Positions 3,670-61,262 of a stretch of 64,000 bases of DNA are shown in pieces (the first letter of the stretch is position 1; the number at the start of each line of letters is the position of its first letter). The notes under the pieces were generated by a model. The model was not told where the DNA came from. It was given only the letters and a program-made list of their open reading frames with translations, and made no database searches. Made by a program: the position numbers and the translations under genes. Where the stretch lies: positions 2,058,844-2,122,843 of the forward strand of contig MU057711.1 in NCBI GenBank assembly GCA_013265495.1, given 5' to 3'. This stretch comes from Vicugna vicugna (lineage: Eukaryota).

Positions 3670-3797
3670 GGGGAGGGTACAGCTCAGTGGTAGAGCACCT
3701 GCTTAGCAGTCATAAAGTCCTGGGTTCAATCCCTAGTACCTCCTCTAAAAAAAATAAATAAATCTAATTACCTCCCCCCATCCCAAAATAAAATAAT
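3670..3797 (+). mobile_element. tRNA-Ala-derived SINE (Vic-1-like)
   Basis: ggggagggtacagctcagtggtagag...gggttcaatccc...ctaattacctcccc plus A-rich tail. Confidence 0.88.
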
Positions 3798-14593: not shown

Positions 14594-14728
14594 TTTTTTA
14601 CATTTTTGGGGGGCTTTTTGGGGGGTAATTAGGTCTATTTTTTTATTTTTTAGTGGAGGTTCTGGGGATTGAACCCATGACCTTGTGCATGCCAAGCTTG
14701 CACTCTACCACTGAGCTATACCTTCCCC
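14594..14728 (-). mobile_element. tRNA-Ala-derived SINE (Vic-1-like)
   Basis: Reverse-complement SINE; TSD tagcacactg(gg/aa)tctt at 14578-14593 and 14729-14744. Confidence 0.9.
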
Positions 14729-31868: not shown

Positions 31869-31986
31869 TTTTGGGGGGAGGGGGTAATTAAGTGTATGTA
31901 TGTTTTTAGTGGAGGTACTGGGGACCGAACCCAGGACCTCACGCATGCTAAGCATGCGCTCTACCACTGAGCTTACCCTACTCCCC
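31869..31986 (-). mobile_element. tRNA-Ala-derived SINE (Vic-1-like)
   Basis: Reverse-complement SINE; TSD agat(c/t)tagctttcat at 31854-31868 and 31987-32001. Confidence 0.9.
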
Positions 31987-36368: not shown

Positions 36369-36486
36369 GGGGAGGGTATAGCTCAGTGGTAGAGTGCATG
36401 CCTAGCATGCATGAGGCCCTGGGTTCAATCCCCAGTGCCTCCATTAAAAAATTAACCCTAATTACCTTCCCTCAAAATTAAAAAAA
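36369..36486 (+). mobile_element. tRNA-Ala-derived SINE (Vic-1-like)
   Basis: ggggagggtatagctcagtggtagagtgcatgcctagcatgcatgaggccctgggttcaatcccc plus SINE body and A tail. Confidence 0.9.
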
Positions 36487-39129: not shown

Positions 39130-39270
39130 GGGGAGGGTATATAGCTCAGTGGTGGACGGGTGCCTAGCATGCACAAGTCCTGGGTTCAATCCTCAGTACC
39201 TCCACTCAAAAACAAACAAGCATAATAACCTCCCTTCCTCCTGCAAAACAAAAAAATATTAAAAAAAAGA
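39130..39270 (+). mobile_element. tRNA-Ala-derived SINE (Vic-1-like)
   Basis: tRNA head, body and A-rich tail. Confidence 0.88.
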
Positions 39271-41003: not shown

Positions 41004-41220
41004 GGGGGAGGGTATAGCTCAAATGGTAGAGTGCATACTTAGCACGCATGCTGTCCTGGGTTCAATCCCCAGTACCTCCATTAAAATCCCCAGTATCTCC
41101 ATTAAAAAAATCAATAAATAAATAGGTAAGCCTAATTACTTCTCCCTCAAAAAAAAAATAAATAAAACAAAACAAAGTGTGTCAGGAAAGCATTGAAGTG
41201 TTAAAAAAATAATAATAAGA
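41004..41220 (+). mobile_element. tRNA-Ala-derived SINE with extended tail
   Basis: TSD taaaagaaact at 40993-41003 and 41221-41231. Confidence 0.88.
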
Positions 41221-41486: not shown

Positions 41487-42919
41487 AAAAGCATTTTTGG
41501 GGGGACAATTAGAAATTCAAATATGAGAACCAGAGATTAGATGTAATAGAACTGCTATTAGTTTTTAAGGTGTGAAAATGGTATCGTAATTAGGTAAGAG
41601 AATGTCTCTCTTCTTAGGAGCTGCATGTGAAGGACTTAAAGGTGAGATGTCATGAACTCTGCAACTACTTTTCATGGTTAAGAAAAAATTTTATTTATAC
41701 AGCATATGTATAAGTTAAAAAATGGCAGAATGGTAATAATTACTGAATCTAGATACAAAATACATGGGTGTTCATTACAGTATTCATTCAAATTTTCTAT
41801 ATACTTAAAATGTTTCATAATAAAAAACTGGAACAGAATAAAATTAAAAGGGGCCTAAATGCAATGAAGTGCCCAGAACAGGTTCCTGAAACAAAACAAA
41901 ACAAAATACGTTAGTAGAAAAACTGGTGAAATATGAATAAACTCTGTAGTACATTTAATATTATTGCACTAATGCTAATTTCCTAGTAACTGTGCCTTCA
42001 TTATACAAGATTCAGGAAGGAGAATTTAGATTAAAAAAACGCCCTGTACTATCACTTGATATTTTCTATAAATGTAAAATTATTCCAAAATAAAACCTTT
42101 TTTTTTTAAGGGGGCAACCAGTGTATAAAAACTCTAAGTTTTCATTGGTTTTTAATATGCATGTAATTGAACAACTTCAAGATCCAATGTTTACCACTAT
42201 GACCTTCCACAAATATCTAGTTTGGCACAAAAAGACCCCAAATGTGAGAAAAGCTTCCATGGGACCACGTATGGGACAGAAGGGATGCCACGTCTGTACC
42301 CACTGCCTGGGCATCAGGGCTGCAGGCCAGACAGGGGGCTTGGTCCTTAGAGGAGAGTGAGGCTACTGCCTGGGTGCAGCTACCTTGTTCTGGCTCAGAG
42401 AAGCTTTCCTTAGTTCAGCAAAGACACAGGTTGAACTGTCTGCTTGTGCAGCACCGACTGCAAAAGAACTGCAAAGAGGAGGAACACAGCAGTGTCAATT
42501 TATGTCCCTTCTCTGGTCTGCAGAGCCCCCAGCCACCCACCTTTGCGAGCTAAATCAGATTAACCAAGTCGCCACATCACAGACATCTGTGCAGTTTTTG
42601 GAGTGTCTATCAGATTTTCATTCATATTATCTCATTTAATCGTGGTAACAGCTCCCATTTTACAAAGGAGGAACAGAGGACACCTAGCCCCTCTCTACCT
42701 TCGCTGAGTCATAAACACTTTTCACCGGAAGCTCTCTCTTTAACAGGAGATGCTGGTGCTTCACCTGACTCACATGAACCGCATTCACTCCTTCCCTCTG
42801 AACTTCTACCAGCCTTATACTGTGATGAATCAGAACAGGTAAGGGATGTGAAAACACTTTTAGCCTTTTGTCAAAGGGGAGTGTGGGTGGAAGAATGTGG
42901 TTGAAATCCAAGCAAAAAT

Positions 42920-42984
42920 CTATGACTTTTTTGAAAGCAACATCAATTTGATAACACATCTGTGCTGCTGGGATTGCGTGGTGG
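42920..42984 (-). CDS. NCOA5-like: candidate terminal coding exon A
   Basis: Acceptor tgctctgtgctctag; phase 1; (A)TTQSQQHRCVIKLMLLSKKS*; no homology support. Confidence 0.3.
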
Positions 42985-43963
42985 CTAGAGCACAGAGCAC
43001 AGAGTCACACGGCTGGTGCGCAGCCTCGGCTCCACCAGGTGCCGCTGTGTGACCTTGGGCGGGTTAATCGCCCTCTGAGCCTTAGGTGACTCATGTGGCA
43101 AATGGAGATGATCCCAGTACGTAGCCCACAGGGTTGTCTGAGGACTCAATGGAATTATCTCAGTGCCTGGCATACAGTGAGAACGCAATACATGGCAACT
43201 ATTACTGGCATGCCTCATGGTTCTGATTTACATCTTTGTTTTTTAAAAGAGCTTTCTCCAACTATTAGTGCTTGACTTTGGGGCTGAGAGGGCCCCTGGA
43301 AGCCATGGAAGGCCATTTTGGGGGTAAGGAAAGTTCTCCAAATTTTTAAAAAATTGTGATCCATGAGCGGAGGATCTTCAGAATTAGATAATTATCTGGC
43401 TCTCCGGGAGGGTGGGAGCCACTGAGCTCCGTCTGTTCTATCTCTTGCCACTATTTTGTAAATGTATATTCTTTATACCACAACCACAGCAATATCTACC
43501 TCACAGACTAAAAACCAGAGGGTTGAAACTTTTAAATGATAATAAATATCATGAAAAATGTCTCTTGCATGGAAAACGAAGAAGGACAAAGGCCCACTTT
43601 CCTAATAGCTGGGGCTTCAGCCCCAAATCTTTAAACAGAATTAAGAGGAACTCTGGGCGGTACCTTCATCTAGGCTTAGTAAGTCTGAATGACTAGAAAT
43701 GAAGCAGCCAAACACCTGTTTGGCCGCCTTCTGTTCCAAGCCAGAGCACAGCCTCAGCTCTTCCCACCGCCTTGGCAGACCAGCCAAAGGTCTGCGCTCA
43801 CACCCTGGTGAGTTTGGGGACAGCCTGGAAGCCTCCAGCCTCATCTCCCCGAGCCATGCAGGAGGGAAGGCAGCATCAGAGAAAATGAGAGCTGGCCAAG
43901 GAAGGAAGATAGAGAGAAAAGCCTCTATTCCCGTGCAGGCTCTGAGCCAGGGCTGGGTATCAG

Positions 43964-44037
43964 TTAGCACTTTAAATATGGTAGATCAGATCCCTGTCCT
44001 CCGGCCAGGCAGGGAAGGGGCTGTTCCTCCTTGAGCC
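43964..44037 (-). CDS. NCOA5-like: candidate terminal coding exon B
   Basis: Acceptor cctcatttctgcag; phase 1; (G)LKEEQPLPCLAGGQGSDLPYLKC*; no homology support. Confidence 0.25.
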
Positions 44038-44594
44038 CTGCAGAAATGAGGCATATACCTCCAACGACATCAAAGACCCATGACTAAATGACATTCAGTC
44101 TCATGAAAAGATACTCCCTTTGCCAACCTTTTGCACTCCTGACTTGTCAAGGAGAGAGTTTCTGCATTGTTGGTGTCCCACTGACACCTCCTTGACCCTT
44201 AGTAACTCCCTTTATTTACCAGGGATGGAGTAAGCCTCAACCTTAGACACTGAGGCAGGTAACAGTAATGAGTAGGAATTGAGTAACATTGTTTTGTGTT
44301 CTTTTTATTATGGTTGCCTTCTATTTTGGAGCAAATAACAATGATGTCCATTCATGAAAGAGATGCAACATCCCTTTTTAAGTACATTTGTAGCTTTAAA
44401 AAAAAAGAAAGGGAAGGGAGGGAGAAAAAGACTAAGAAATAATAGATTTCTACATAAGAAAAATATAGCACACTTTCCTACCTACTGTGACATTTTCTTG
44501 ATGCCTCCAACAGCCCATAACTGTGCTGACCACTACCAGCCACCAGCCACATACCACATACAACCCTTATTTAATTACTACATGACTAGAATCA

Positions 44595-44763
44595 TTTAAA
44601 TAATTAAAAAGTAAATAAAATTTTAAAAATTCAATTCATCAAATGTGTCGTACTAGCCACATTTCAAGGGCTCAATAGCCACGTGTAGCTGACAGCTCAC
44701 CTCACTAGACAACGCAGCTACGGAACATTTCTCCCACCACAGAAAGTTCTTTTGGTCAGTACG
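44595..44763 (-). mobile_element. MER3-like hAT-Charlie element
   Basis: actagccacatttcaagggctcaatagccacgtg...gaacatttc...cacagaaagttct. Confidence 0.7.
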
Positions 44764-44801
44764 AGCCTAGAATGCCACTCAAAGCTCACCTGGCTACTCA
44801 C

Positions 44802-44948
44802 CTGGTGGTGGTACTAAAAGGCCTGGCTTCTCCCCAAGTAATGGACGTTTGGGAGGCTTGGGAGGGAGGCATCCCAAAGGTGCAGGCCTCTTGGAGGGGA
44901 CTGCCAGAAGTGGGGGAGGGGGAAACAGACCTTTGGGGTTGACCAATC
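44802..44948 (-). CDS. NCOA5-like coding exon (Pro-rich repeat 2)
   Basis: ttttgttctctgcag acceptor, gtgagt donor, 147 nt, phase 1-1; LVNPKGLFPPPPLLAVPSKRPAPLGCLPPKPPKRPLLGEKPGLLVPPP. Confidence 0.8.
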
Positions 44949-45144
44949 CTGCAGAGAACAAAACCAAAACATAAATGGGAAGATGCATGACGAACCCATT
45001 CCAGCTGTTTGCCCCAAAGGGACATTTCCTCATCTTTAGAAAGGGGCTGAGCAGGGAGCACCTGCCACGCACACCAAGCCCAACCTCAGCTCCTCAAGCT
45101 CTGCCAAGTCCTCTCTGAGCCCAGACTGTGACTCAGTGATTATC

Positions 45145-45360
45145 CAGGGTTCAGCAAACTAGAGTCTGGGGGCCAAATCCAGCCTACTGTTGGTTTTGGT
45201 ATGGCCTGCAAGCCAGAATGGTTTTCTCATTTTTAAATGGTTACATTATAAATGGTTATATCAGTACATACATAATATCCTTAATTTTGCTTCTTGGCCT
45301 GAAAAGTCTAAAATGAAATATTTACCATCTGGCTCTTTAAAAAGAAGTTTGAAAACCCTG
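45145..45360 (+). mobile_element. MER58-like hAT-Charlie element
   Basis: TIRs cagggttcagcaaact ... agtttgaaaaccctg; ggccaaatccagcc motif. Confidence 0.75.
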
Positions 45361-46885
45361 GGCCTAAGTCCATGCCTGTCCTGACATCCTGGTCCTCCAC
45401 CTTCACCTTGTCACAAGTGGGTTTTGTTCCAAACATTCTGTTTTGACACAAAAGACCCAGAATTGCCAAAGTAATACTGAAGAAAAAGAGAAAAAAATGC
45501 AATACATTTTCTCAAACATCCAAAGCACTTAGGTTCCCAGACAGGTCATAAAGGCAGACCCACAACATACCTGAAGCACTCTGTTCTTCAGAATCTAACA
45601 TCCATCCACCCAGGACACGGGCCCCCAGTGGTGTAACACATGGTCTAGTGCCCTGTCACCTTGCTCTTGGTGATAGTCTGCCAGGCACAATCCTCACCCT
45701 GCTGAACAGGACATTTTCTCCCAGTTCTTGCCAAGGTCCTGAAGCAAGAACCTAGCCCTTTTTGAAGGTCTAGAAGAGTTTTGTTTTTAAACTAATGGCA
45801 AGGATGGGAAACCATTAAAGGCAAAAAAGATTTCTTCCTGAGTCCTCCTCCCTTTTATTCACTCACTTCTCATGGGAAGCAACCAGGTAGTAAGAACAGG
45901 CCTGTGGCTGAGGCACAGGGGAGTGCCAGGACAACGGGAGAAGGAAGGGAAGAAACAAAGACATGGCAAACAAAGCGCAGGCCGTGATGGGGACAGAGAA
46001 GATGCTGAACTGATACACCCTCGCTCACCCTGAAAGTCAACAGGTCAAAAAGGGAGGGGGTGCGGAAATGCTCGTCCCTAGGGCTGTGGAGCTTCAGTGC
46101 ACTGACACTGCCAACAAAAGATGTGTGTACTACAGCTAGAAAGCAAGCGGGCACATTCCCTCAATTACAATCCACAGTAATAGTCAAGGTGGAAATATTG
46201 TGCTCAAAGGAAAAATTTTTGGTTCAAAAATAACCCTTGTTCACATAGGAGGCCAAAGCAATAGATGACTCTTATGAACAAATGCATCTCCAGGTCTAAA
46301 TTTTATTTAAGGTCCAGGTGAAAAGCCACCTTCCTGAGAAGACCTCACTGACAACTTCCTCTTTAACATGGAAGATTGAAAACATGCTCTCATCTGGTTC
46401 CTCCTCCGCTCCCACTGCCAACACACAAGGAGGACAGGGGAGGAGACAGAGTGTATGAACAAATGTTTGGGAAGGTGAGGAACAGAAGGGACGGTGAGTA
46501 AATGGAGGAAACTACATCCTAGGTGCCTGAACTCTTTACCCTCAAGAGCAGGGAAAAGCTCCAACACTGGACGAACCAGAAACCCCACAGGGCTGACCAC
46601 TGGGCTCGAGTGGGAGTCTGTGCCCACCCAGCTCTCCTCCCAGAGGTAAGAGATGGATGTCTGATGAAGCTGCATGAGCAGCAGGATCCAGTGTGGCCCA
46701 AAGTTAGTCAGCTCGGGATTTCCTGTCATACAAGCCAATCAAGTCCCCTTGTTGTAAGCTAACTCGAGTTGGTTTTTATGTCACTGGCAATGTGAGAAAT
46801 CCACAGCACTAAAACTTCATTTTAGGCAGATGTTGGATACTATTTAGCACCAACTGCTCAGAAAAGAAACCTCAAAAACACTACT

Positions 46886-48549
46886 TCAAAGTACTGAGGA
46901 CATTTTTCACAGAACTAGAACAAATAATCCTAAAATTTATATGGGATCACAAAATACCCAGAATTGCCAAAGCAACACTGAAGAAAAAGAACAAAGCTAG
47001 AGGTATAATCCTCTCAGACTTCAGACAATACTACAAAGCCACGGTAATTAAAACAGTGTGGTACTGGCACAAAAACAGACATATGGATCAATGGAACAGA
47101 GTAAAGAGCCAGAAATAAACTCACACACCTACAGTCAATTAATCTTAAACAAAGGAAGCAAGAATAGACAATGGAGAAAAGACAGTCTCTTTGGCAAGTG
47201 GTGTTGGGAAAAATGGACAGCCGCATTTAAATCAATGAAGTTACAACACTCCCTCACACCATACACAAAAATAAACTCAAAATGGCTTAAAGCCTTAAAC
47301 ATAAGACAAGACACCACAAACCTCCTAGAAGACAACATAGGCAAAACATTCTCTGACATAAATCACAGCAATGTTCTCCTGGGTCAGTCTACCCAAGCAA
47401 CAGAAATAAAAGCAAAAATAAACAATGGGACCTAATTAAACTTATAGGCTTTTGCACGGCAAAGGAAACCATAAACAAGACAAAAAGACTAGGAATGGGA
47501 GAAAAATACTTGCAAATGATGTGACTGACAAGGGCTTAATTTCCAGAATATACAAATAGCTCATACAACTCAGTAACAAAAAAACAAACAACCCAATCCA
47601 AAAATGGGCAGAAGACCTAAACAAACATTTCTCCAATGAAGACATATAGATGTCCAATTAAAAAATGTTCAACATTGCTAATTATCAGAGAAATGCAAAT
47701 CAAAACTACAATGAGATATTACCTCACACCAGTCAGAATGGCCATCGCTAAAAAGTCCACAAATGATAAAAGCTGGAGAGGATGTGGAGAAAAGGCAACT
47801 CTCCTACACTGTTGATGGGAATGCAGTTTGATGCGGCCATTATGGAAAACAGTATGGAGATCCATTAAAAAACTAAAAATAGACTTATCATATGATCTAA
47901 CACTTCCACTCCTGGACATACAACTGCAGGAAACTAATTTCAAAAGATACATGCACCCCAATGTTCACAGCAGCACTATTTACAATAGCCAACACATAGA
48001 AGCAACTTAAATGTCCATTGACAGATGACTGTATAAAGAAGTTGTGGAATACACACACACAATGGAATACTACTCAGTCATAAAAAAGAATGAAATAATG
48101 TCATTTGCAGCAATATGAATGGACCTAGAGATGATCATATTAAGTGAAGTAAATCAGGAAGAGAAAGACAAATACCATATGATATCACTTATATGTGGAA
48201 TCTGAAAAAATGATACAAACGAACTTATTTACAAAACAGAAACAGACTCACAGACATAGAAAACAAACATGGTTACCAGGGAAAAAGGAGGTGGGGGAAG
48301 GATAAATTGGGAGTTCGGGATTTGTAGGTACCAACTACTATATAGAAACAGATAAACAACAATGTCCCACTGTATAGCACAGAGAACTGTATTCAATATC
48401 TTGTAGTAACGTATAATGGAAAAAAATAAGAAAAGGAATATATATAGATATATATATGTCTGCATAACTGAATCACTATGTTGTACCCCAGAAATTAACG
48501 CAACACTGTAAATTGACTATAACTTCAATTAAAAATAGAAAAAAATTTT
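46886..48549 (+). mobile_element. 5'-truncated LINE-1 (ORF2 3' part plus 3' UTR), intronic and antisense to the gene
   Basis: Decayed ORF2 C-terminal sequence, 3' UTR and A tail; 12-bp TSD aaaaacactact at 46874-46885 and 48550-48561. Confidence 0.92.
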
Positions 48550-48853
48550 AAAAACACTACTGAATTCAGAGTGCTCATTATGACAACTCGAAGTCACTCT
48601 AACTGAGGTCACAAACCTTGGTCAAAGAGCTTCTCTAAACCTCTCCCTGTATTAAAACTTAAGGCAATTCGTTCAAGAGAAATAGCACCCATTGAACCTC
48701 AAAGCATCTCTCCTGTCTTCTGAAATTGGATTAGTCATTAAAAACGTAGCAACAAACACTGTCACTGCTCTAAACTATCCTGCATCCTCAGGAGAACTCT
48801 CATGGAAACAGAAGAGCGACCGCTAGGTCGTATGCCGAGAGGGAAGCACTGAC

Positions 48854-49045
48854 CGGGCGGTGGAGGGAGACTGCCTGGCCTCTCACCTAACAAAGGGGAC
48901 TTGACAAGAAGTGGGGGAGGAGGGCCTACGAAGGATCTCTTTCTGGGGGTTGGAAGAAGTGGAGGTGGCTTGCCCACGGTGAGGGTAGTTCTGCCTTGAA
49001 ATGAGGGATGATCACTGCTGGCCAAAGGATTTGGTGTCTCAAAGC
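48854..49045 (-). CDS. NCOA5-like coding exon (Pro-rich repeat 1)
   Basis: ttcttcacttttccag acceptor, gtcagt donor, 192 nt, phase 1-1; FETPNPLASSDHPSFQGRTTLTVGKPPPLLPTPRKRSFVGPPPPLLVKSPLLGERPGSLPPPP. Confidence 0.8.
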
Positions 49046-49869
49046 CTGGAAAAGTGAAGAAAACAAATGGTCAGCAGAAATCTGCTGCAGAGGCCAGCAA
49101 GCTGCACAATTACTCAGGTAATTCCAGGAAGGTTTTTGATTCTTCCTACTTAGAGGTTTCTATAATAAAAAAGCAACAGGATGTTAGCTAGACTTACTGT
49201 GGTGAGCGCTACACAACATAAACAGATAATTGAAGCATTATGTTGTATACCTGAAACTAATATGTTAAATGTCAGTTTTATCTCAATAAAGACAAATTTA
49301 AAAAATAAATTAAATAAGCACTCAGAAGAAAAAAGAAACAAAACCGCTATGCTTTAAAAAGCTTACGGATTCCATCCCCATCCTGAGAAAGTAAGTTCAA
49401 TAAAAGCACAAAAAATAAAATACAGTCCACATTTTATAAGAATAACAATTTCTTTAAAGATTTAACATGGTCCTGTAACTTCAGCTGCTTTTCCCTACAA
49501 GGGACAAGTGATTATTATTTTCTTCTCACCTACTCAACTCAAAACAAGCAATCTGAAAAGTCACTACTTTAAGGACTTGACTTGTAACTGGAGTGCTCTT
49601 TAAAACAGGTGAGAGTAGGAACTGCTTCTTTACATTTACCACACACTTCAAAGTACTCTTAAAATGTCTCAATTAACAACAACAACAACAACAACAAAAA
49701 AAACAGAATCAGAAAAATAAACTGAAAGGGAACTAGAACTGTTTCCTACATGTCCATCTATATAGAGAGGGCATCCTATTTATACATTAAAAATCTGGTT
49801 CAAAAGAAAATTAAGCTTCAGAAGCAGCATTTCAGTCTCAACAGGCTAAACACTAAAATAGTGTATTCC

Positions 49870-50004
49870 TGGAGGAGGAGGGTGTAGCTCAGTGGTAGTG
49901 TGTGCTTAGCATGCACAAGATCCTGGGTTCAATCCCCAGTACCTCCACTAAAAACAATCACTAAATAAATATAATTATCTGCCCCCACAAAAAATAAAAA
50001 TAAA
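49870..50004 (+). mobile_element. tRNA-Ala-derived SINE (Vic-1-like)
   Basis: 16-bp TSD taaaatagtgtattcc at 49854-49869 and 50005-50020. Confidence 0.9.
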
Positions 50005-50175
50005 TAAAATAGTGTATTCCCACCCAGGATATGTTCAAATCAGATACCTCTGTATTACAGAGGTACATTCTCTCAACTAAATGAAAAGCTGTTAGTTTTC
50101 TTTCATACATGGATTTTTTAGAAAAGGATTTTCTGGGATTTAAAATAGGGAAAGAAAAGGGATGGTGCCAAATAC

Positions 50176-50451
50176 CTTCCAGTTGTCCTTTCCTGGTCTT
50201 CAGGTAGTCGATGAGTACGTCCAGCTCATTCCTGTACAAATGCTTGCCCTCGTTTAACAGGAAAAGAAGATGCTGAATGCCCGAAGGGACAGAGTAGCTG
50301 GTGAGGCACTCCCGGGCCAGGAAGTCATCTACCAGATCTCCAGCCCTCAGAGAAGTTTCAGTGCGTTCCTGCTGCTCCCACTTAGCAAAAACTCTCCTAT
50401 GTTCTTTAGCCACCAGCACCAGGGCATCCTCCAGGGGCATATGCCGATGTA
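50176..50451 (-). CDS. NCOA5-like coding exon (end of core domain, helical region and LxxLL box)
   Basis: tttcttgtccctag acceptor, gtattt donor, 276 nt, phase 1-1; HRHMPLEDALVLVA...IQHLLFLLNEGKHLYRNELDVLIDYLKTRKGQLE resembles NCOA5 HRNMPQADAMVLVA...IQSLINLLADNRYL...IINYLRERK (recalled). Confidence 0.9.
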
Positions 50452-53329
50452 CTAGGGACAAGAAAGAGCTTGCTTTACATCAAATGGGTGCTCTGTTTGC
50501 TTTTAAAATACGTTTACAAAAAGACAAGAGGAAAAGCAATCAGAAGATAACATGGTTAGTCTAAGAACATGTTTAAACTGTCTCAGCTTTCAGTACAGAT
50601 GTGACTGTCTACTGACTCGAGAGACCGGGACCCTCAACAGCAGGTGCCCTGTCAGATTTCAAAATCAAACATCACATTCTGTTTCAAAATTATAACATGT
50701 GACAGCGTGGTTTACTGTTTCCATATACACCCTTATTTCACAATTGGATAGCTTCATGCTAAGCTGAGATAGAGGGGGTCAGGGGGAGAGAGAGAGGAGA
50801 GATATGTGGCATGTATGTCAATGGGAATTCTTAGGGCTAAACAAATCTAGCCTTAAAAAAGAGACAGGATGCAACTACAACCATCACTGGCTACTGGAAG
50901 TTTTTCATTAAAAAAAAAAACTGAAAAAGAAGGTTTTCATTTGGGTCCAGTAATCAGGGTGTATGATTCGAGACGAGTGTGATTCACAGAAGAAACCAGG
51001 ACCTGGGATCAGCAGCCTCTAGATGGGGAGGCGGGGTGAGAAAAGAGTGAAGCAGGGGCTGCTGTTTCTCGTTATGAACTTTTCAGTGTTTATCTTTTAA
51101 CTCTGCATATGCAGTATTTTGGTAAAAGGCAGATAGATGGACAGACATGCGGCGCAGGGCTTCCTGGCTCTGTCATTGCAGCATGAGGTGTAACACACAT
51201 CCTCTAGGTGCCTCTGCACTCTTTGGTTCAGGTGTATGGGGCCTTAAACCGTGTTAAAACCCTTTCCAGGTCAGGTCAGGAGTGCTCTGGGTCCTCAATA
51301 TTACACAGAAAATGGATTCTAGACGCCTAGCATAGCTTTTACGTAACTTGATGGCTGTAGTCAGTGCACAGTCTTCTGATCTCCCCTAGGTTTATTTACT
51401 GAGAATGAGACCTAATAAAAGTTTAATTTGAGACAGGAGGCCCCTACCCTGTCTTGCCATATATCACGTGCTTCTGAACAAATTTTGGACCCAAGGGACA
51501 CCACAGAACTACAGTGGAGATTATGGTATTTGGCTAAATCTTAAACTGTGTTTATTAAGGTTACATTTAGGAAGAAGTATGAATAGATATTTGTCTTCAG
51601 GTGCTGAAGTTTCATTGTTTGACTATTTTTCATATTTGTCTCAGCACAGAAGCAGCTCCACACGCTTTTGAATAATGGCTGCATGCAAGGTATGAAGCAA
51701 ACTGTTGGCTACAAACCATTGTGAAAGAGAGCCCAGCTAAGACTAGTCTTACTAAAACAGACGCAGCTTATAGGAGGAAACAAAGTGTTCTTTTTACTTA
51801 TGATCTGAGTTCAATAATTAAATTCACAAATGAGAAATGAAACACTTACCTATTAATACTTTTCTGGACATGATGAAGAAGCTATCTTCTGAATTTGTAA
51901 CATGTTAAAAGTAGATTACACTTTTCTTGAAGTAATGCTGGGTTTTTCTGAAGTATTTCAGTATTCAACAAATTATTCAACCTACTTATTTTAGTGATAA
52001 TTTCCTAAATGACTGTGCATGAACATAACACTTAAGTAACCAGACATGATTCATCTTTTGCACAATCTGTCCAAATTATACAGTTCTCCATCCCCACCCC
52101 AGGAGACTGGGATTTGTAATTTTTGAAAGTATGCATTTTCTTTCACATTTTCGGAACTTATGTACCACATAAATGTGGTTTAGTCTTATTTCTTTAAAAT
52201 AAATTGGACATTTTTCTATGCTTAGAGAAACTGCTATTTCATACTCTTGGGTACTGAGCAAGGGCTGGCCAGATGGGTGTGGGTGGCTACAAAGAGGCAA
52301 AGCAAATGGACTGGTCAGAATAAAAGGTATTCTGGCATCCCCAAGATGATGGGGAGCAAGTGTTCTTCCCTATTGTTTTTTCAGACCCAATATGATGGCT
52401 GGAGTATTGAACATCAACCCTACGCTGACTTCTCTGCAAGCTCCAGAAGCTATAAGCAGCATATAAATCCAGCTACTAGTGCTCCACAAGGTCTCTGCCC
52501 ACAGGAAAGATCTCCTGACTCAGCAATGAACATCCTACACTGCTAAGAACACTAGAGCCGGGATGGACAGTCCAGGGTCTGTTGGAGAAGTGTGCCTGGC
52601 TGCTGCTTACCTGGACAAAACAAGGAAGCAAAGTTGGCCTGACATCTTGCAGAGGGCCTGGCACACAGGAGGAACTCAATATGTCTGGACTGAACAGAAC
52701 AGTACCAAGAGCTTCTGCAAATACGAGAGGACTGGTACACCCATGCTTGTCTGGCTATAACTCCAGGTAAGCTGCTAAAGGCCCTACTCAAGGCAGCCCC
52801 CTCCTCCCTCGAAGTAGCAGCTCTGACCAGGAGGGAGAAGCTGAGGGTGGTCTAGGACACGTGCATCCGCCAAAGTCTGGGTATTTCAGGGAGGGGGAAA
52901 AGAGTTCATTTCTGTGAATTCTCGTTGTATGTTCAAGATCTCATACAGAAGGCAGAGTTGGCAAGGAAGGTGTAAGAGAATGAAGGGGATAATGAACATG
53001 GAGTCTCATTATCACCAAGGGCAGAAAAAATGATGGTGGGACCTGGTCAAACGTTCCACATAAGAAACCTGAATTGGTTACATAATATTTTGGATGCGAT
53101 ATTTTGGATCCTTAAGTCAGAAGCAATGAAGACAATTTAAGTTTCAACTGTCTACAATATACCAAAGAGAACTCTGTGATAACATTTCAAGTCATCTTTT
53201 CTTAACTGGATCCAGTTTAGTTACTGACAAATGTGAACCTTCAGAATGTACTCACATACAAAGGAAAAATATTACATTTTAAAAGCAGGATCTATTTTAG
53301 ATGATGGTTCTAGATTGAGCTAAACTTAC

Positions 53330-53529
53330 TTTTGATAGACTCATGAAGCATAATTACAGTGCAGGAAGAAAGTTTTACGTTGGACTGTTCGACAAGAATA
53401 CAAAATGGGGACCCATCGTCTTTAACTTCCTGGAGTGCTCGAGTGAGGCTCGACTCAGAGGCAAGGTGAATCATTTCCACCACAAGGCCATGATCCTGCA
53501 ACCGATGACCTATAGCTATTGCATATTCC
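53330..53529 (-). CDS. NCOA5-like coding exon (anticodon-binding-like domain core)
   Basis: tttttttcag acceptor, gtaagt donor, 200 nt, phase 2-1; EYAIAIGHRLQDHGLVVEMIHL...LTRALQEVKDDGSPFCILV...SSCTV resembles NCOA5 DYAESVGRKVRDLGMVVDLIFL...LSQALEDVSRGGSPFAIVI...RSCTV (recalled). Confidence 0.92.
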
Positions 53530-54229
53530 CTGAAAAAAAACACACACACACACACAAACAAGAAAAAGGTGGGTTACTTTTCATCAAACAAACGGGGCAA
53601 AAAAAAAAATCTATGTCACCAAGCAGTTGTTCCGCAGATACTTTGATGCGCCCAAACTTAGGTAAGTGAGGTCCAAGACACTATACTTTTACTGTATTTA
53701 GATAAGTGAGGTGGGAGATGCCATATTTTTCCAAAAGTCATGCATGTGCTACAACTTATTGTCATTCCTAGACACACCGAACACATTCAAAGGTGTGTTA
53801 TCCATCTGATGGAATCAGTTAAGAGAACTGGAGGCAATTCTGACTAAAAGGAAGCTTACTTTTGTGAAAACATAGAGTCCTTTTATGGTTTATTATGTAC
53901 ATAACTTAATAAAGAAAGGAGAGTATGTCAAAGCTGTGTTTCTGTGTGACATGACACACTGGGTAAGCACCATGAATATGGCCAGCATTTTTCCAAATGG
54001 AATCATTCAAGTGTTATTTGATGAAGTCATTTCAATTTAAAGACTAGCAAAGAAAAATTTTAATTGTTTTAAAGAACAAATGAGACTATTATCTTCAGAA
54101 AAATGAGACAATGCTCATTTACAGTTAGTTCCTGGGATATACCAATACTTGTTGAGGTTACTACCGCTGAGACAATTCCTTGCTAAAGAGTAAATGGATG
54201 ATACTGGAGTTAACCATCTCAGTCAGCAT

Positions 54230-55000
54230 CAACCATCCCATAACTTAACCTTTGATCAAAACCCAGAGTCATCTCATCACCTACTTCCTTAGCCTTGGTC
54301 CTCAAGTCTTGAAGAATCTGCCCTAGACCACTCCTTTGGGTTAATGCTTTCATTCCTGCCCAACACTTGCTTAGAAAGCTACAAAGCCCTCCTAACATAG
54401 CTTTTAGCCTTGATTTTCTTTTCTCGCCCCAATCATTCTACATGTCAGTCTGAGTAATCCTGTTAAAAGTACTGCGTTCAAAACGGCCCTAGTAACTGTT
54501 CAGCATCCTAAATTTCTTAACCTAGTGTTCAAAGTCCTGGCAAGACATGGCTCAAACCTATCTTAATAGGTTTTGTAACCCACAGAGCTTCCAACATTCT
54601 GTTTCTCTCCCCAAGTTTAATTTCTTGTGATCTTAGGACAATCAACTCTCCCCACAGTGTTTCCAGCTGTGCCTTCCTTGCCATTCTGTTGGCTAGACTC
54701 TTAGCATCCTCACCTCAAAGGCCCAGCTCAAATGATATTATTCCCTAAAGCCTCCTTGATTCATCTTGTTGGAACCCACAACGGTAACCCACTCTTCCTT
54801 GAATGCACACTCTGCTCAGAACAACTCTTGGCATGTTCCATCTTCCAGTTGTTATTTATGCTCGTTTTATTTTATTAGACTGCACGTGATACAAACGGGA
54901 ATTGTTAATTATCTTTATGTTTCTCACTGTGCCCAGCACAGAGCTTTACACATTAACAGTGCACAAAATTTATATTTTGTGAATGAAAAATTAATATGAT
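54230..55000 (+). mobile_element. L2 fragment
   Basis: ggcccagctcaaatgat...gtgcccagcacagagct...gtgcacaaaatttatattttgtgaatgaa. Confidence 0.55.
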
Positions 55001-56906
55001 GGCAGGAAAAATGCTTTTCTGGCAATTTAGGAGAGAATGGATGATTTCAGAAAATAAATTCCAAGAGGAAACAAGAAAAATATGAAATGGTTCATATTTA
55101 CAGAGTGACAGCCCATGAGTCAAAATTATCACAAAAATGACTCACACTAGATGATGTGACTTGAAAATTAATTACTGTTTTGGACTATAAAGGAATGAAT
55201 TAGCCAACTAACTTATCACTACAAATCTTCCCGACACTGAAGTGACAAGAGAGCCGGCAGCATGGCCTAGTTTACAGATTCCCTGGCAGACAACAGACCC
55301 ACAAGGCAGAGGACCTAAAGGATAAAGGCCACCAGGATCCTAATCCCTGGCTAAATGCCAGACCTGCAGAACGCCAAGCAGGGGAGTGACCACCACTCCA
55401 GACGGAGAGGGGAACAGAGCAACCTCCAGTACTCCTCTCCCACAGAACTCTGCACTCAAATTAATACCAGTCAGCCTGGCTCCAGAGATGGGAAGGTGGC
55501 AAGAATATCACTATTAAGGTAAGTTGAATGGCAGCTGGAGTCACTCACAATTCTAAAAGAAGCGCAGGCTGCTACAAGTTGGGTGGGATTCTTGCTACAA
55601 GTTTTGAGAAAGCTAATATAATCAAAAACTAATGTCATTTCCCTGACTGATGCAGAGTATGGTGGCAAAGCTGCCAACTGTTGAGGGAAAACAAAGCTAC
55701 TACGCATGCAGAGTCTTTACTGCCTCTGGGTTCAAAATCAGTTTAAATTACATGATCAAATTAATCCAGAGCACACCTGGTTGTCTTTCAATTATTAAAC
55801 AGAAATTCTATAATTTTCTAATGTAAAAGGAACTGGCCTCTCCTACCCTCCCCACGCTATGACTGACCTCATTTCTTCTAGTATGCTGTCTCCCAAGGTC
55901 CAACCCAAATAACCCTCCAAACGAGATGGAGCTCTAATTTTGCTTTCACAAACTCAGACTAAAGATGCCATCTACAAATAAAGTAGATTTCTATAAAGGA
56001 GTTATCATAGAATAAAAATTCTGGGTCACTTTAAAATTGCAGATTTTCACATTAAAAAAGTGAGGAAACCAATGCTGCCTTAATGCTGGGCTACGTTTTG
56101 TGTATGCCTGGCCTCCTGTTCAGGAATCACTAGTTCTCATCACGTCTGGGTCTTCAGTATCACTCACGCAGGACCTAGCCTGGAGTAACCATGGATGCCT
56201 GCAGCCGACCATTTGTCTATGTGCCAGGCTCCCTGCCAAGCATGACAAAACCTGACATAATCCAGACACAGTTATCGTCATATGTGAAGTCCCTGTCTGC
56301 CCTCAAGGGCCAGGCAGTGGTGAGATCAGGGCACTACATAGGCCTGAAGTATGAGCTGGACACAGACTGGGCTGCAACTGTGCTTTAAGAGGCCTGAATG
56401 AGTGAGGTGCAGAACAGGGAACAGGCATCCCATGTAGAAGCAAAAACAGCACAAAGACTGAGAGGAATTCAACCGGCAGTTAAGAAATGAGAGAACCCTT
56501 CTCTGAAAGATCAGTGAGAGCAACTTTTTGGCACATGGTCAGTGCCTCAGGGCAGGGGTTTGCCCATCATGTTCACTCAAGTATCCCCAAAGCCTAGCTC
56601 AGTGCCTGGCACATGGAAGCCAGTCCTGAAAATAGCTTTTTTTTTTTTTCCTGATTATAAAAGTAATAGGTACTCACTGTAGAAGACTCGGGTAATACAG
56701 AAAACTGAATATGACAGTAATCTTTAGAAATCGCCCCGCCCACAAGATGCCTCTACCACCAGTTTGGTAAATCCAACAGCATAATGCTTGTAATTCTTAA
56801 AGCAGTGTTCCAGCAGAGCATTTCTCAGCAATGCATATAAAGCGGAATACTTAGTCATTTGGCTTTACACAACCTCATTTGACACGCTAAAAAGAAAAGA
56901 GTCTAC

Positions 56907-57033
56907 CTCTGTTCTTTGTCGATAGAAACAATAACGCAATCGGAAGGCCTCTCTCGGTCACGCTCTTTCTGAACCACTTGATAAAAGTGCTGGAAAAGCC
57001 CCTCTTTCCGAGCGTCCCTGCCGCTGGCATCAT
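56907..57033 (-). CDS. NCOA5-like coding exon (not shown in this frame in the ORF track)
   Basis: tattttccag acceptor, gtagac donor, 127 nt, phase 1-2; DASGRDARKEGLFQHFYQVVQKERDRERPSDCVIVSIDKEQ resembles NCOA5 RREELYRQYFEEIQRRFDAERPVDCSVIVVNKQT (recalled). Confidence 0.88.
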
Positions 57034-58499
57034 CTGGAAAATATTGATGTATTCATGCTTTTTGCGAGGCCAAAAGTAATGCACTGGTGAGCAAAAACTC
57101 ACCAGAAGAAAAAACTCACCCAAGAAAGGTTTTCAGGGTGTCTTACAAAAGTGTAAATCAAAGACAACACAGCTACAAAGAACAGACAAGGAAAATATAA
57201 GGACACTTTCAACAAGATTCTTACCCAGCTGAGAGTACTGGCATCGCGCGTGGCTCTCTTCATTCCCTTTTGTATAATCAGCCACCCTTCGCCATAATTC
57301 TTCAATGCTGTTGGATGCATGAAAATATAACAGTTTGTGCAAATACAGTCTCCCTCTAAACGGGTCCCCAAAAGCCCAAAAATAAATGCCAGATCACCAA
57401 GCACAACATATAGGCACCTAAATAAAGACTAAAACGAAGCTCAATGATCTGTTCTCGTTTCACAATATTTTTAGTTTCTGGAATTTTCTGCTCTTTCCCA
57501 TTCAGTTCCTTTTGTCTGTTATAATGAAAAGTACTACATGGAGCCATTGATCTTTGTCAAGTAAGATTCAGATATAGACAGAGAGTGAGATTCATACTTT
57601 CAGGTGTTTATTCTAAAGGACATGAGAGAATTTCATCTGAAGTGTTCATCTTTTAAACAAGAGGTGCTTATCTCTGAAGGTTTTCACTGGATATGGGTGA
57701 AAAGACGAATCAACAAGATCTGCCCACTTTACTCCTAAACACTCTACAGCTCCCGTGAGCAAGCGATTTCCCCCTGCTAAAGGTGTGCAGAATAGTGCAC
57801 AGATGCTGGGTGATCTATCAGCCATCTAAAGTGGTTCCCCTGCTGTGATTTAACAGGAAAGGGGGCATTCAATGCACTATGGACCCTAAATCAGGCATTT
57901 TTACTGCAGCTCCCCAGCATCCAGACACCGATGTTTCTGTCCACAAGGAATGACCTGCCAGAGAGAGAATCCCCTCGGCAGGCAGCAATTAGCTCGTTTC
58001 TCACCAGAGGCATCACACTGCCTGGCAAAGCAGCCGTGGAGCACCTCAAACCATGACTACTCAGCAAGCTGCCAACAAGCGTCGATTCCCTTTGCTCTTT
58101 CCCTGTGCGATGCTCATTCGGGTTCTTGTCCACGTCCAACCGCCTGACAGAGCAGTCGCAGCTCCAGACTTTAAGACGCAAAGCTTTTGCCTAAGTCCAT
58201 GCCTCCCCTACTGCCCTGAGAATCCTGAGCTACACAAGAATGCTCCCCTCCCGCAAGCAGGCTTTATCTTTGTCTGCTGTCTCTGACAAATGCTGGCCGT
58301 TGACTCCAGAGGCCATTCTTCAGACTGCCTGCTTTCTCTAACCCTGCTACACTATGCTCTTACAGGCTTCCCCTCAAACTTCATACAGTTACTTTCTTTT
58401 AATGAAGGGGTATTGTAAACTCCTCACCACTACCCTAAATAATAAGGGGGGGCTTACTGGGAGGTGCCCTAGAAGCTGGTACCTGTTCATCCAGGAAAG

Positions 58500-58725
58500 G
58501 CAGTATGTTGAAACTGCAGCTACCTGAGTTTGAATCTCAACTCCATCACTTACTTACCAGCTTGAACAAGTTACTTAACACCATTATGCCTTAGTCTCCT
58601 CACCTGTAAAATGGGGCTATTAGGAGAATCTGCCTCTAAACATTGCTATGAGGATTAAACGAGTTAATACAGGTAAATCCTATAGAATGGTGCCGGCCAC
58701 AGAGAGGCCCTCAATAGATATAAGT
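58500..58725 (+). mobile_element. MIR SINE
   Basis: acaagttacttaac...ctcctcacctgtaaaatgggg...tgaggattaaacgagttaata. Confidence 0.75.
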
Positions 58726-59428
58726 CCTTATTATCTACCTCTGCCTTTAGGTTTCTTTCAGGCCCAGGGCAAAGAAAATCTCTCCTTCAGAATATCGCCA
58801 AAGAGTTCTAAGTCTCATTTTCAGGAAATGCTACCTGAGAGAAGCTAGCCTCCGTTAATAGTCACTCCTGAATTCTATACTTTCAAGTGCTTCTGCAGTT
58901 GAGGAAAGCACTTTTCAATTTTGAATTATTAATCTAATCTGACACAAATCTCATCTTTAATGCAGGCAAGAGAGAGGCCCTGTCAAGGTTCATACATACA
59001 AAAATCAATTTAAATACAGTTCAAGGAACTTGCTTTTACCAAAACTACAGAGGTCGATCCAAGGCAAGAATCTTGAACTGCCATGTTGATTTACCTATTT
59101 AGTTTCTTAGAAGAACTCCACTGCTGAATGTAGAAGACAGAGTAAACTAAATAAGATAACCTTCAAAACTGGTTTACTTACTTGGGGATACCACACAGTG
59201 GTCAAACACAATGAGGATGAATAATCCTCTGCGACGTACTGTTAAGTGAAAGAAACAAGTTCCAGAAAAACATACCAGTGTGAAATGAACCATTTAAGTT
59301 ACAAGCAAGGAAAAAAACATTGGGAGAGTTCTGAAAAGGGATTTTCACTTTTTATTATCAGACACTTTCATAACTATTTTTCCATTTCTTGGGTTAAAAA
59401 ATAATTTTAAAGTAACTTTAATTTATAC

Positions 59429-59687
59429 CTGGTCTGGAATATTGACCTGTCTCATAATAAAATAAATTCGCATTTTTTGAGCACATACCAATGGTTAGAT
59501 GGCAGTAGAGAAAAGGTGTGTAGGCGTGGAAGAAGGGAGTTTCAGAAGGGAGTCCGGGGCCTGCTACAGATAACCCACCAGGTGGGTTACCCACCTTAGA
59601 GCTGACTGACAAATCCACAAAGAGAAGGCCTGAGTGGCTGAGTCCCTTCAGGCTGCAGGTCTGTTTTAGTTCCTAGAGTCCAAATGT
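59429..59687 (-). CDS. NCOA5-like upstream exon (coding at least from ATG 59486; 5' part has stops in all frames)
   Basis: Strong acceptor ttttcacctttgcatag, gtataa donor in phase 1; the 3' frame MCSKNANLFYYETGQYSRP joins the next exon in frame. Confidence 0.55.
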
Positions 59688-59868: not shown

Positions 59869-59949
59869 CTTAGCATGTCTTCACCCTCCTTTAAGTAGCC
59901 CTCTTGGGGAGAATAAGAAGTCGGCAGAAAAGGTTTATATGGCTTACTG
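59869..59949 (-). CDS. NCOA5-like candidate upstream exon
   Basis: tttgttgttttttag acceptor (NAGNAG), gtaaaa donor, 81 nt; the only open frame is SKPYKPFLPTSYSPQEGYLKEGEDML (phase 2-2). Confidence 0.45.
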
Positions 59950-61262
59950 CTAAAAAACAACAAAGATAAAATTACACTTAAGAAGAAATTATTTCCCATA
60001 GTCCTCACATCGGTTTCTGCAGCTCTGGTGCACTCAAAGGTGATTAAGTCTTCAGTTCAACCGGGTTTTAAAAACTCAAACAATGGCTTTTCTCAAGACT
60101 TTTTTTTTCAGAACCCCTACTTTATTTTGCAATGCCTATTTCTATTTTTGCCTAGTTTGCTTGCTCAAATGCTTTTGCCGAGTTGACAATTGAAGGCACA
60201 GCTCTGTCACAGAAGACCATTATAAACTCACTGACAGCAAGGAGCTTCAACATAATAAACCTGATTTGCCCAACTGAGCCAAACTCACTAAAAGTTTGCA
60301 TGCAATGCTGATGGTTTGGTAACTATGAAAGATAATAATAACAATAAATCACTATTTTTTAAAGCTTTTCTTTCCCAGATGCTCCACCAATATTACCATA
60401 AATTCTCGTGGATCATCTGCAACTTTTAATGTATCTGACACTAACTCCACAATGGAGCTTATAAAAGAAAATTCCTAAATGAATCATGTGCATAATTCTA
60501 AGTATTAAATCCTCAATTAAGGTCACTGTTATAAATATCTACATGCCAAATGCGTTTTGACAGAGACACCATCTTCCTCATTCAGAAGTTGTGTGGTTAA
60601 TTAATAACATAAATCAAAATCGAAGACAAAAATAAAGGGCAAAACCTAAGAAGCAAATGCCTGCTCCAAGTTGTTAGCTGGAAGAGACAAGGGGCTAAAC
60701 AAGATTAACTATTATAAATTTGGACTGAGAGGGTTAAAGAGTTATTAGAAAGATTTCCATTTCCAAAAAGGATAAGGAGCACAGATGCTCCACTCCACCC
60801 TCTTCTCGATGATCCTAGCCAAGTTTGAAGGCCATGAGAAGGAATAAGCAGATGGTTCAATGTGAGTAAGTCAAAAGGAAGTTGCATTTGCCTTATTCGG
60901 CTTCCTAGCAACTAGACTGAATGATGCCAAGAAAGCCAGCCGGCTCTAAGGAGAAACACTGCAGGATACTTGGAACCCAGTGGTCAGGCAGGGGAGAAAA
61001 GGCCTCCAGACACCCCCACCTGGCAAAATGAATCCTACCAACTCCCGCACTTCCCACCTCACCAGATCCTCCCATTTGCCTCGAAGTTCCCTCTCCAGCC
61101 CACCTAGCCATGCTAATGTCAACCACCTGACAACTTAAAACTCCTTTCAGGACCACCTTTCAAACTCCAGTAACATCATCAGATGAGCAGTTTGGCCCAG
61201 CCATCAAAGAGTAACTCCCCACTTCTCCATGGGAGGGAAGGCCCCATGCACTCTTAATGTAC

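Follow-up and report, generated by a model that had tools for sequence, protein, structure and literature searches.

An intact, intron-containing NCOA5-like gene in Vicugna vicugna, the sister of NCOA5 in vertebrates

Does a stretch of the Vicugna vicugna genome that resembles NCOA5 (CIA, coactivator independent of AF-2) carry a working gene and, if it does, which member of the family is it and what might it do? The stretch, referred to here as the window, is 64,000 nucleotides (nt) long (assembly GCA_013265495.1, contig MU057711.1, positions 2,058,844 to 2,122,843 of the forward strand). A sequence-only reading of this DNA had proposed an NCOA5 paralogue with six spliced exons. We found that the locus is an ordinary, intact, intron-containing gene, an unstudied sister of NCOA5 that has already been annotated automatically. 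It is very probably an intact orthologue of the vertebrate ‘NCOA5-like’ gene.

The NCOA5-like gene runs on the minus strand (2.101-2.138 Mb of the contig) and its coding sequence is split into nine exons, eight of which lie inside the window. Exons were located with a list of stop-to-stop open reading frames (ORFs) and by tblastn with the alpaca NCOA5-like protein, and their borders were read directly in the sequence. In window positions, except for the first exon, they are as follows.

L004:4975-5033, in the adjoining part of the contig, roughly 15 kb after the last base of the window, minus strand: coding exon 1 with the ATG, 59 coding nt, MSSLVRLHRGQYGRPSVAK.
59869-59949, minus strand: coding exon 2, 81 nt, residues SSKPYKPFLPTSYSPQEGYLKEGEDML; 100% identity to alpaca protein residues 20-45 (tblastn).
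57225-57307, minus strand: coding exon 3, 83 nt; 100% identity to alpaca protein residues 46-73 (tblastn); acceptor cag/, donor /gtaaga.
56907-57033, minus strand: coding exon 4, 127 nt; 100% identity to alpaca residues 74-116; encodes the helix before the alpha/beta domain.
53330-53529, minus strand: coding exon 5, 200 nt; 98.5% identity to the alpaca protein; core of the anticodon-binding-like alpha/beta domain, with a match to Pfam HGTP_anticodon.
50176-50451, minus strand: coding exon 6, 276 nt; tblastn E = 8e-54; last strand of the domain, long helix and the IQHLLFLL helix (PhixxPhiPhi/LxxLL box).
48854-49045, minus strand: coding exon 7 in its long form, 192 nt; start of the Pro/Leu-rich tail.
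48887-49045, minus strand: coding exon 7 in its short form, 159 nt through the internal donor TTAG/GTGAGA; omits 11 codons (ERPGSLPPPPG) and stays in frame.
44802-44948, minus strand: coding exon 8, 147 nt, Pro-rich tail; 100% identity to alpaca residues 328-376.
42410-42468, minus strand: coding exon 9, the last, 56 coding nt plus the TAA at 42410-42412; residues VLLQSVLHKQTVQPVSLLN; acceptor gcag/; 100% identity to alpaca residues 377-395.

All eight introns, spread over more than 36 kb, are of the GT-AG type and their phases are all compatible. Joined by coordinates, the nine exons yield a coding sequence of 1224 nt (407 codons) whose sole stop is the terminal one; the chance that a random frame of 407 codons stays open is about 3e-9. 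The alternative donor of exon 7 gives a frame of 1191 nt (396 amino acids), likewise without internal stop. An acceptor directly precedes the ATG exon, which implies at least one exon of the 5' untranslated region further upstream. The acceptor of exon 2 is a tandem NAGNAG (tag/cag/, window 59946-59951) and use of its second AG moves the exon start to 59946 at the cost of one Ser, which explains the alpaca isoforms X1 and X2 that are one Ser apart. Immediately upstream of the exon-5 acceptor, a (GT)n run is followed by a T-run (53530-53575).

Five of the six exons drawn in the sequence-only reading (127, 200, 276, 192 and 147 nt) proved exact to the base in their acceptors, donors and phases, and they match the alpaca NCOA5-like protein with tblastn E values of 3e-22 to 8e-54. 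The remaining one, a 58-nt ATG exon, found no support: the segment most likely meant (59429-59486, with an ATG at the upper bound of the proposed gene, a GT end and a fitting phase) is used by no orthologous protein or camelid model, and the 83-nt and 81-nt exons are used instead. The model was also incomplete, lacking exons 2, 3 and 9 and the true ATG exon; exon 9 lies below its lower bound and the ATG exon outside the window. No orthologue-supported exon was found between 42920 and 44801, and no further obvious long coding exon among the 207 ORFs of at least 75 amino acids in the whole window. The ORF at 54219-54437 (minus strand, intron 4) is the first exon of an old ab initio model of Camelus ferus (EPY82133); it is unused by the other camelid models and by a Camelus transcript contig, and we did not count it in the gene. 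There is no convincing CpG island in the window, where two 500-nt segments were only marginal.

Every exon matches the alpaca (Vicugna pacos) RefSeq/Gnomon models of ‘nuclear receptor coactivator 5-like’ (XP_072824919.1 and XP_072824916.1). Between the 396-residue form encoded in the window and alpaca X1, 2 of 396 residues are changed (I168V and R208W); relative to Camelus ferus (XP_032344071.1) the number is 6 of 396, four of which fall in disordered parts. These few changes place the genome in the llama/alpaca lineage of the camelids. At residue 168 the window has the V of camels (I in alpaca), whereas its W208, encoded by the TGG at 50378-50380 in exon 6, stands against R in both alpaca and camels. 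The 90% cluster of the best match gathers RefSeq models from Vicugna pacos, Camelus ferus, C. bactrianus and C. dromedarius. These camelid models describe the same gene and are automatic predictions without functional study. The gene is therefore not a discovery, with RefSeq models in alpaca, camels and more than 100 other vertebrates. The gene is named ‘NCOA5-like’ by RefSeq in alpaca and camels and bears the zebrafish-derived name si:ch211-216l23.2 in UniRef.

A search with the exon-6 ORF returned 69 proteins (E from 7e-54 to 2e-22), most of them named ‘nuclear receptor coactivator 5-like’ or ‘uncharacterized LOC...’. They come from camelid, whale, hippo, pig, many carnivores, moles, shrew, pangolins, xenarthrans, cricetid rodents, marsupials, monotremes, squamates, turtle, alligator and frog. 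With a profile of 20 orthologues, 332 proteins were retrieved and, among the 120 matches listed, all the named ones are from tetrapods. No primate, horse, rabbit, murid or bird protein occurred among the 69 exon-6 matches or among the 120 listed of the 332 profile matches. The window protein carries the motifs that mark the NCOA5-like group in the orthologue alignment, namely the MSSxV start, the KPPPLLPTP-type [P/G]LL tail repeats and the HLLFLL helix. We found no functional study of this paralogue in the literature searched, though preprint supplements might list the gene. The name NCOA5-like occurs there in two papers, one of them on corals, and a single sentence in a 2026 preprint was all that was found on the gene; the names NCOA5LP and ch211-216l23.2 and five LOC identifiers gave no match in it.

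The protein was modelled with AlphaFold2 on an alignment of 20 sequences. The model is confident for a core at residues ~77-277 (predicted local distance difference test score of 85-96) and disordered at both ends. The N-terminus (about residues 1-76) is predicted to be disordered with conserved short motifs. The predicted core opens with a helix (residues 76-102 of the model, encoded by exon 4) and continues with a five-stranded alpha/beta domain of the anticodon-binding type of class II aminoacyl-tRNA synthetases. After this domain come a helix of 40 residues and a pair of shorter ones, and IQHLLFLL would lie in the first of the shorter pair. Four residues of that helix (L245, F247, L248 and L249) are invariant in the orthologue alignment. 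The tail is 28% Pro and 19% Leu, contains six [P/G]LL repeats and is disordered in the model; a search of the ESM Atlas with the tail sequence gave no usable match. In Pfam, the full protein scores 21.1 bits for HGTP_anticodon, barely above the cut-off of 21, and single exon-sized ORFs gave no more than one sub-threshold match to it (17.1 bits). Pfam revealed no RNA recognition motif (RRM) in the window protein.

NCOA5 is the clear relative of this core. A phmmer search against all PDB sequences returned a single entry, 1V95 (‘anticodon binding domain from nuclear receptor coactivator 5’, human; E = 5.9e-22). The same entry was the top Foldseek match of the predicted structure (E = 1.8e-10; 37% identity and a root-mean-square deviation of 1.4 Å over 107 columns; template modelling score of 0.78 on the target). 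BLASTP against NCOA5 of Microtus gave 33% identity over 194 amino acids (E = 2e-36). The comparison with the NCOA5 domain and the search for protein similarity that had been suggested for this locus thus both gave significant matches, and the middle domain is indeed kept at low identity, as claimed. The alignment with NCOA5 starts at the helix that precedes the domain and extends to where the helical module ends, such that the two proteins have in common a homologous helix, the anticodon-binding-like domain, the long helix and the PhixxPhiPhi/LxxLL helix. IQHLLFLL stands opposite IQSLINLL, the stretch taken here as the box of NCOA5, and the LxxLL-type box is accordingly retained as HLLFLL rather than lost.

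Outside this module the two proteins differ. The summed fraction of Arg and Asp is 0.149 in residues 1-87 of the window protein and 0.503 in residues 1-173 of Microtus NCOA5, which bears out the claim that the Arg/Asp-rich N-terminus is missing. In its place, the NCOA5-like protein has N-terminal motifs of its own (MSSxV..., NPYKP and YSPxxGY). The tails are also distinct in BLASTP and in composition, as had been noted, with a Pro/Leu-rich tail (Pro fraction of 0.28) in NCOA5-like and a Gln/Ser-rich tail in NCOA5. More remote likeness was found to the anticodon-binding domains of class II aminoacyl-tRNA synthetases (ThrRS, HisRS, GlyRS and ProRS), which present the same alpha/beta fold (Foldseek E of 1e-5 to 1e-4; root-mean-square deviation of 1.8-2.6 Å over ~97 columns). 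Their identity is only 13-23% and the NCOA5-like protein has no catalytic domain. tRNA binding is an unlikely function for this protein.

We further asked when the duplication took place. Among 1.84 billion cluster representatives, a profile search yielded 365 matches, and 20 of them were named. The named matches comprise NCOA5-like orthologues (elephant shark, whale shark, moray, sucker, Hoplias, Danionella, bichir, reedfish and coelacanth), NCOA5 proper (ray, trout, Siniperca, reedfish, frog and rodents) and single homologues in amphioxus and acorn worms. A maximum likelihood tree was built by a quick search from 43 rows picked among ~380 fetched proteins (405 columns), with the Shimodaira-Hasegawa-like approximate likelihood ratio test (SH-aLRT) as the only support measure. 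The NCOA5-like clade (31 rows, SH-aLRT of 100) follows the species tree and contains Callorhinchus, Rhincodon, four teleosts, amphibians, reptiles and mammals. The NCOA5 clade (SH-aLRT of 97) contains Mobula, teleosts, a frog and a rodent. Two hagfish rows form long branches and their placement is unsure. The window protein is sister to alpaca (SH-aLRT of 96), then to camel (100). Both clades hold cartilaginous and bony vertebrates, which places the duplication before the split of these two groups, in agreement with the ancient origin that had been proposed. These sequences indicate that the gene stems from a DNA-level duplication of the NCOA5 ancestor that predates that split, and we infer that it reflects the early vertebrate genome duplications. 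The NCOA5-like gene has formed a clade separate from NCOA5 since before the jawed vertebrates, and it adjoins a CNEP1R1-type gene instead of lying at the NCOA5 locus.

The ancestry of the family bears on what the protein might do. An N-terminal Pfam RRM_1 domain (E from 1e-11 to 2e-15) is present in NCOA5 of ray, teleost and frog and in the amphioxus and acorn-worm homologues, which indicates that this ‘coactivator’ family descends from an RRM protein. RRM_1 was not found in rodent NCOA5 or in the NCOA5-like proteins tested. NCOA5-like is therefore a member of the wider family that has neither the RRM nor the Arg/Asp-rich region. The paralogue keeps exactly the module that NCOA5 has, and NCOA5-like docking with a different effector tail is for this reason the simplest reading. 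The core would dock other proteins in the manner of NCOA5, with its PhixxPhiPhi/LxxLL helix binding to nuclear receptors or to the partners of NCOA5. Different effectors would be brought in by the PxLL-repeat tail, which is specific to the lineage, and the protein would then be a tissue-restricted coregulator or a competitor of NCOA5. We put forward this combination of docking core and divergent tail tentatively, as a proposal short of an even chance. NCOA5 has been described as a coregulator of the estrogen receptors ER alpha and beta, NR1D2 and LXR, with an LxxLL motif and a corepressor motif (PMC5746116).

A serious alternative also takes the gene to be functional and assigns it, both ancestrally and at present, a role in RNA metabolism instead of nuclear-receptor coregulation. 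Having lost the RRM and the Arg/Asp-rich region, the paralogue would serve as an adaptor or decoy in an RNA-processing complex. Such a role draws on the RRM_1 domains of the relatives just listed and on the core fold, which is that of tRNA-binding domains. It also gains from an observation that counts against a docking function: the LxxLL-bearing helix is conserved in the amphioxus and acorn-worm homologues and is modelled confidently inside the folded core, and it may be structural rather than a free receptor-binding box. On the other hand, the paralogue itself has no RRM, and published receptor interactions of NCOA5 are cited in PMC5746116. We consider a role in RNA metabolism possible, but rather unlikely.

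Returning to the docking proposal, we can outline a broader history for the gene, although the outline as a whole is doubtful. The gene would be a functional sister of NCOA5 from before the jawed vertebrates that shed the RRM and the Arg/Asp-rich regions and gained the PxLL-repeat tail. It would have been kept in sharks, fishes, amphibians, reptiles and many mammals, with independent losses in primates (including humans), in ruminants, in murid rodents and in birds. In the species that retain it, the protein would be a partner or an antagonist of NCOA5-type complexes, restricted to certain tissues and possibly to the reproductive tract. If this is true, a coregulator that has gone unstudied is missing from both the human and the mouse toolkits, and its possible absence from these two species would explain the lack of study. 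Within the window, we are dealing with an ordinary, correctly spliceable gene that public pipelines have already annotated in close relatives. Beyond that, it draws attention to an old vertebrate paralogue of a nuclear-receptor coregulator on which the literature searched has next to nothing and which is patchy among mammals in protein searches. Xenopus or zebrafish would be natural models.

Several lines of evidence speak for a gene that still works. The signs of a unitary pseudogene are absent, with 0 internal stops in 1224 nt and canonical sequences at all splice sites. In 141 non-camelid orthologue sequences, a set that includes several isoforms per species, such that its members are not independent, 70 columns reach a conservation of at least 95%; the window protein keeps all 70, and 59 of them are in the folded core. 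None of the other placental end branches in the tree is as short as the camelid stem branch (0.068; next, Mesocricetus with 0.084). Moreover, Logan contigs of at most 1719 nt encode a protein of 352 residues that is identical to the Camelus sequence. A contig of this size that encodes a multi-exon protein of 352 residues must be a spliced transcript. Similar short contigs are known for other species (seven proteins). Finally, 65-78% of the sampled exon-6 words are present in eight sequencing runs that are registered as RNA and come from two studies, four of them labelled reproductive system, which is a weak indication of expression.

Several observations weigh against a working gene. The transcript comes from Camelus rather than from the species of the window. 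Residue 208 is W in the window where 117 of the 141 orthologue sequences have R. The exon-7 donor at 48887 (read SPLLG/LVNPKG) is the one chosen in every annotated camelid model and in the Camelus transcript contig, with the loss of 11 codons; the tail block thus skipped in camelid transcripts (DRPGGLLPxPG) is kept in other mammals. Camelids have GGTGAG at this place in exon 7, which creates a near-consensus donor; the Glu encoded here is Asp in pig, carnivore and other tested models, and Glu also in hippo and whale. The placental stem branch is long (0.36, against 0.05-0.07 for reptile branches), and sheep and deer are represented by single-exon fragments only. The long stem and these single-exon relics suggest that the gene is dispensable in some mammals.

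These points could be accommodated if the gene were in early decay, with a frame still open by chance of time and selection lifted in camelids, as seemingly in other mammals. Under this hypothesis, R208W hit a mostly conserved site, the new strong internal donor removed 11 conserved tail codons from camelid transcripts, the placental stem was accelerated, only fragments remain in sheep and deer, and the primate, horse, rabbit, murid and bird proteins missing from the matches above fall into place. Yet the nine exons show neither stop nor frameshift in 407 codons, no strongly conserved column has changed, and W occurs in three other orthologues at the column of residue 208. Moreover, the two camelid tribes are only 6/396 apart on a branch shorter than all other placental end branches, and Camelus has a spliced transcript. 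Early decay is in our view improbable.

The remaining alternative concerns the origin of the locus. At least three introns are common to NCOA5 and the NCOA5-like gene in position and phase. Each gene has a phase-2 intron ahead of the (D/E)YA motif and a phase-1 intron between the fourth strand of the domain and HR(H/N)MP, and in each the helical module is followed by a phase-1 donor that falls in a Gly codon. Position and phase agree with NCOA5 at either end of exon 5 and at the beginning of exon 6. Introns shared in position and phase exclude a retrocopy. That the locus is NCOA5 itself or its processed retrocopy, for which the similarity of the middle domain is the sole support, is virtually inconceivable given the true NCOA5 exons at a separate locus of the same genome (contig C9598), the eight GT-AG introns over more than 36 kb and the placement of the window protein in a different clade (SH-aLRT of 100), and the proposal of an intron-containing paralogue distinct from both stands.

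Beyond the ATG exon of the NCOA5-like gene, the same contig carries exons of three other genes, listed here in contig positions.

2.167-2.173 Mb, plus strand: exons with Pfam Tmemb_18A (‘Transmembrane protein 188’), 29-35 kb from the ATG exon in this genome, the one examined.
2.301 Mb, plus strand: exon with PAP_assoc.
2.392-2.395 Mb, minus strand: exons with DUF3512 (BRD7/BRD9-type).

The Tmemb_18A exons agree with the predicted location beside a TMEM188/CNEP1R1-type gene, TMEM188 being another name of CNEP1R1. With a human order at 16q12.1 of CNEP1R1, HEATR3, TENT4B, ADCY7 and BRD7, synteny with human 16q12.1 would hold on the CNEP1R1 side. Likewise, if a human pseudogene NCOA5LP is located between ZNF423 and CNEP1R1, the gene of the window occupies the corresponding place. 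The proposal that humans have this pseudogene alone finds an indirect hint in the lack of primate proteins among the 69 exon-6 matches and the 120 profile matches listed. On contig C3689 (10.30 Mb and 14.42 Mb), another PAP_assoc locus and another DUF3512 locus, each the second of its kind in the genome, are also together and mirror the pair beside the NCOA5-like gene. This pairing fits old paralogous chromosome blocks.

Repeats probably account for some of the other features of the window. In intron 7, ORFs at 46813-47435 (plus strand) contain text similar to ORF2 of LINE-1 and look like a repeat fragment. Seven Rfam tRNA matches (29-58 bits) were found on both strands, at 3673-3744, 14654-14725, 31913-31977, 36372-36443, 39135-39204, 41008-41080 and 49878-49947. 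These are most likely the heads of tRNA-derived short interspersed nuclear elements and not tRNA genes; one of the seven sits in the intron just downstream of exon 6.

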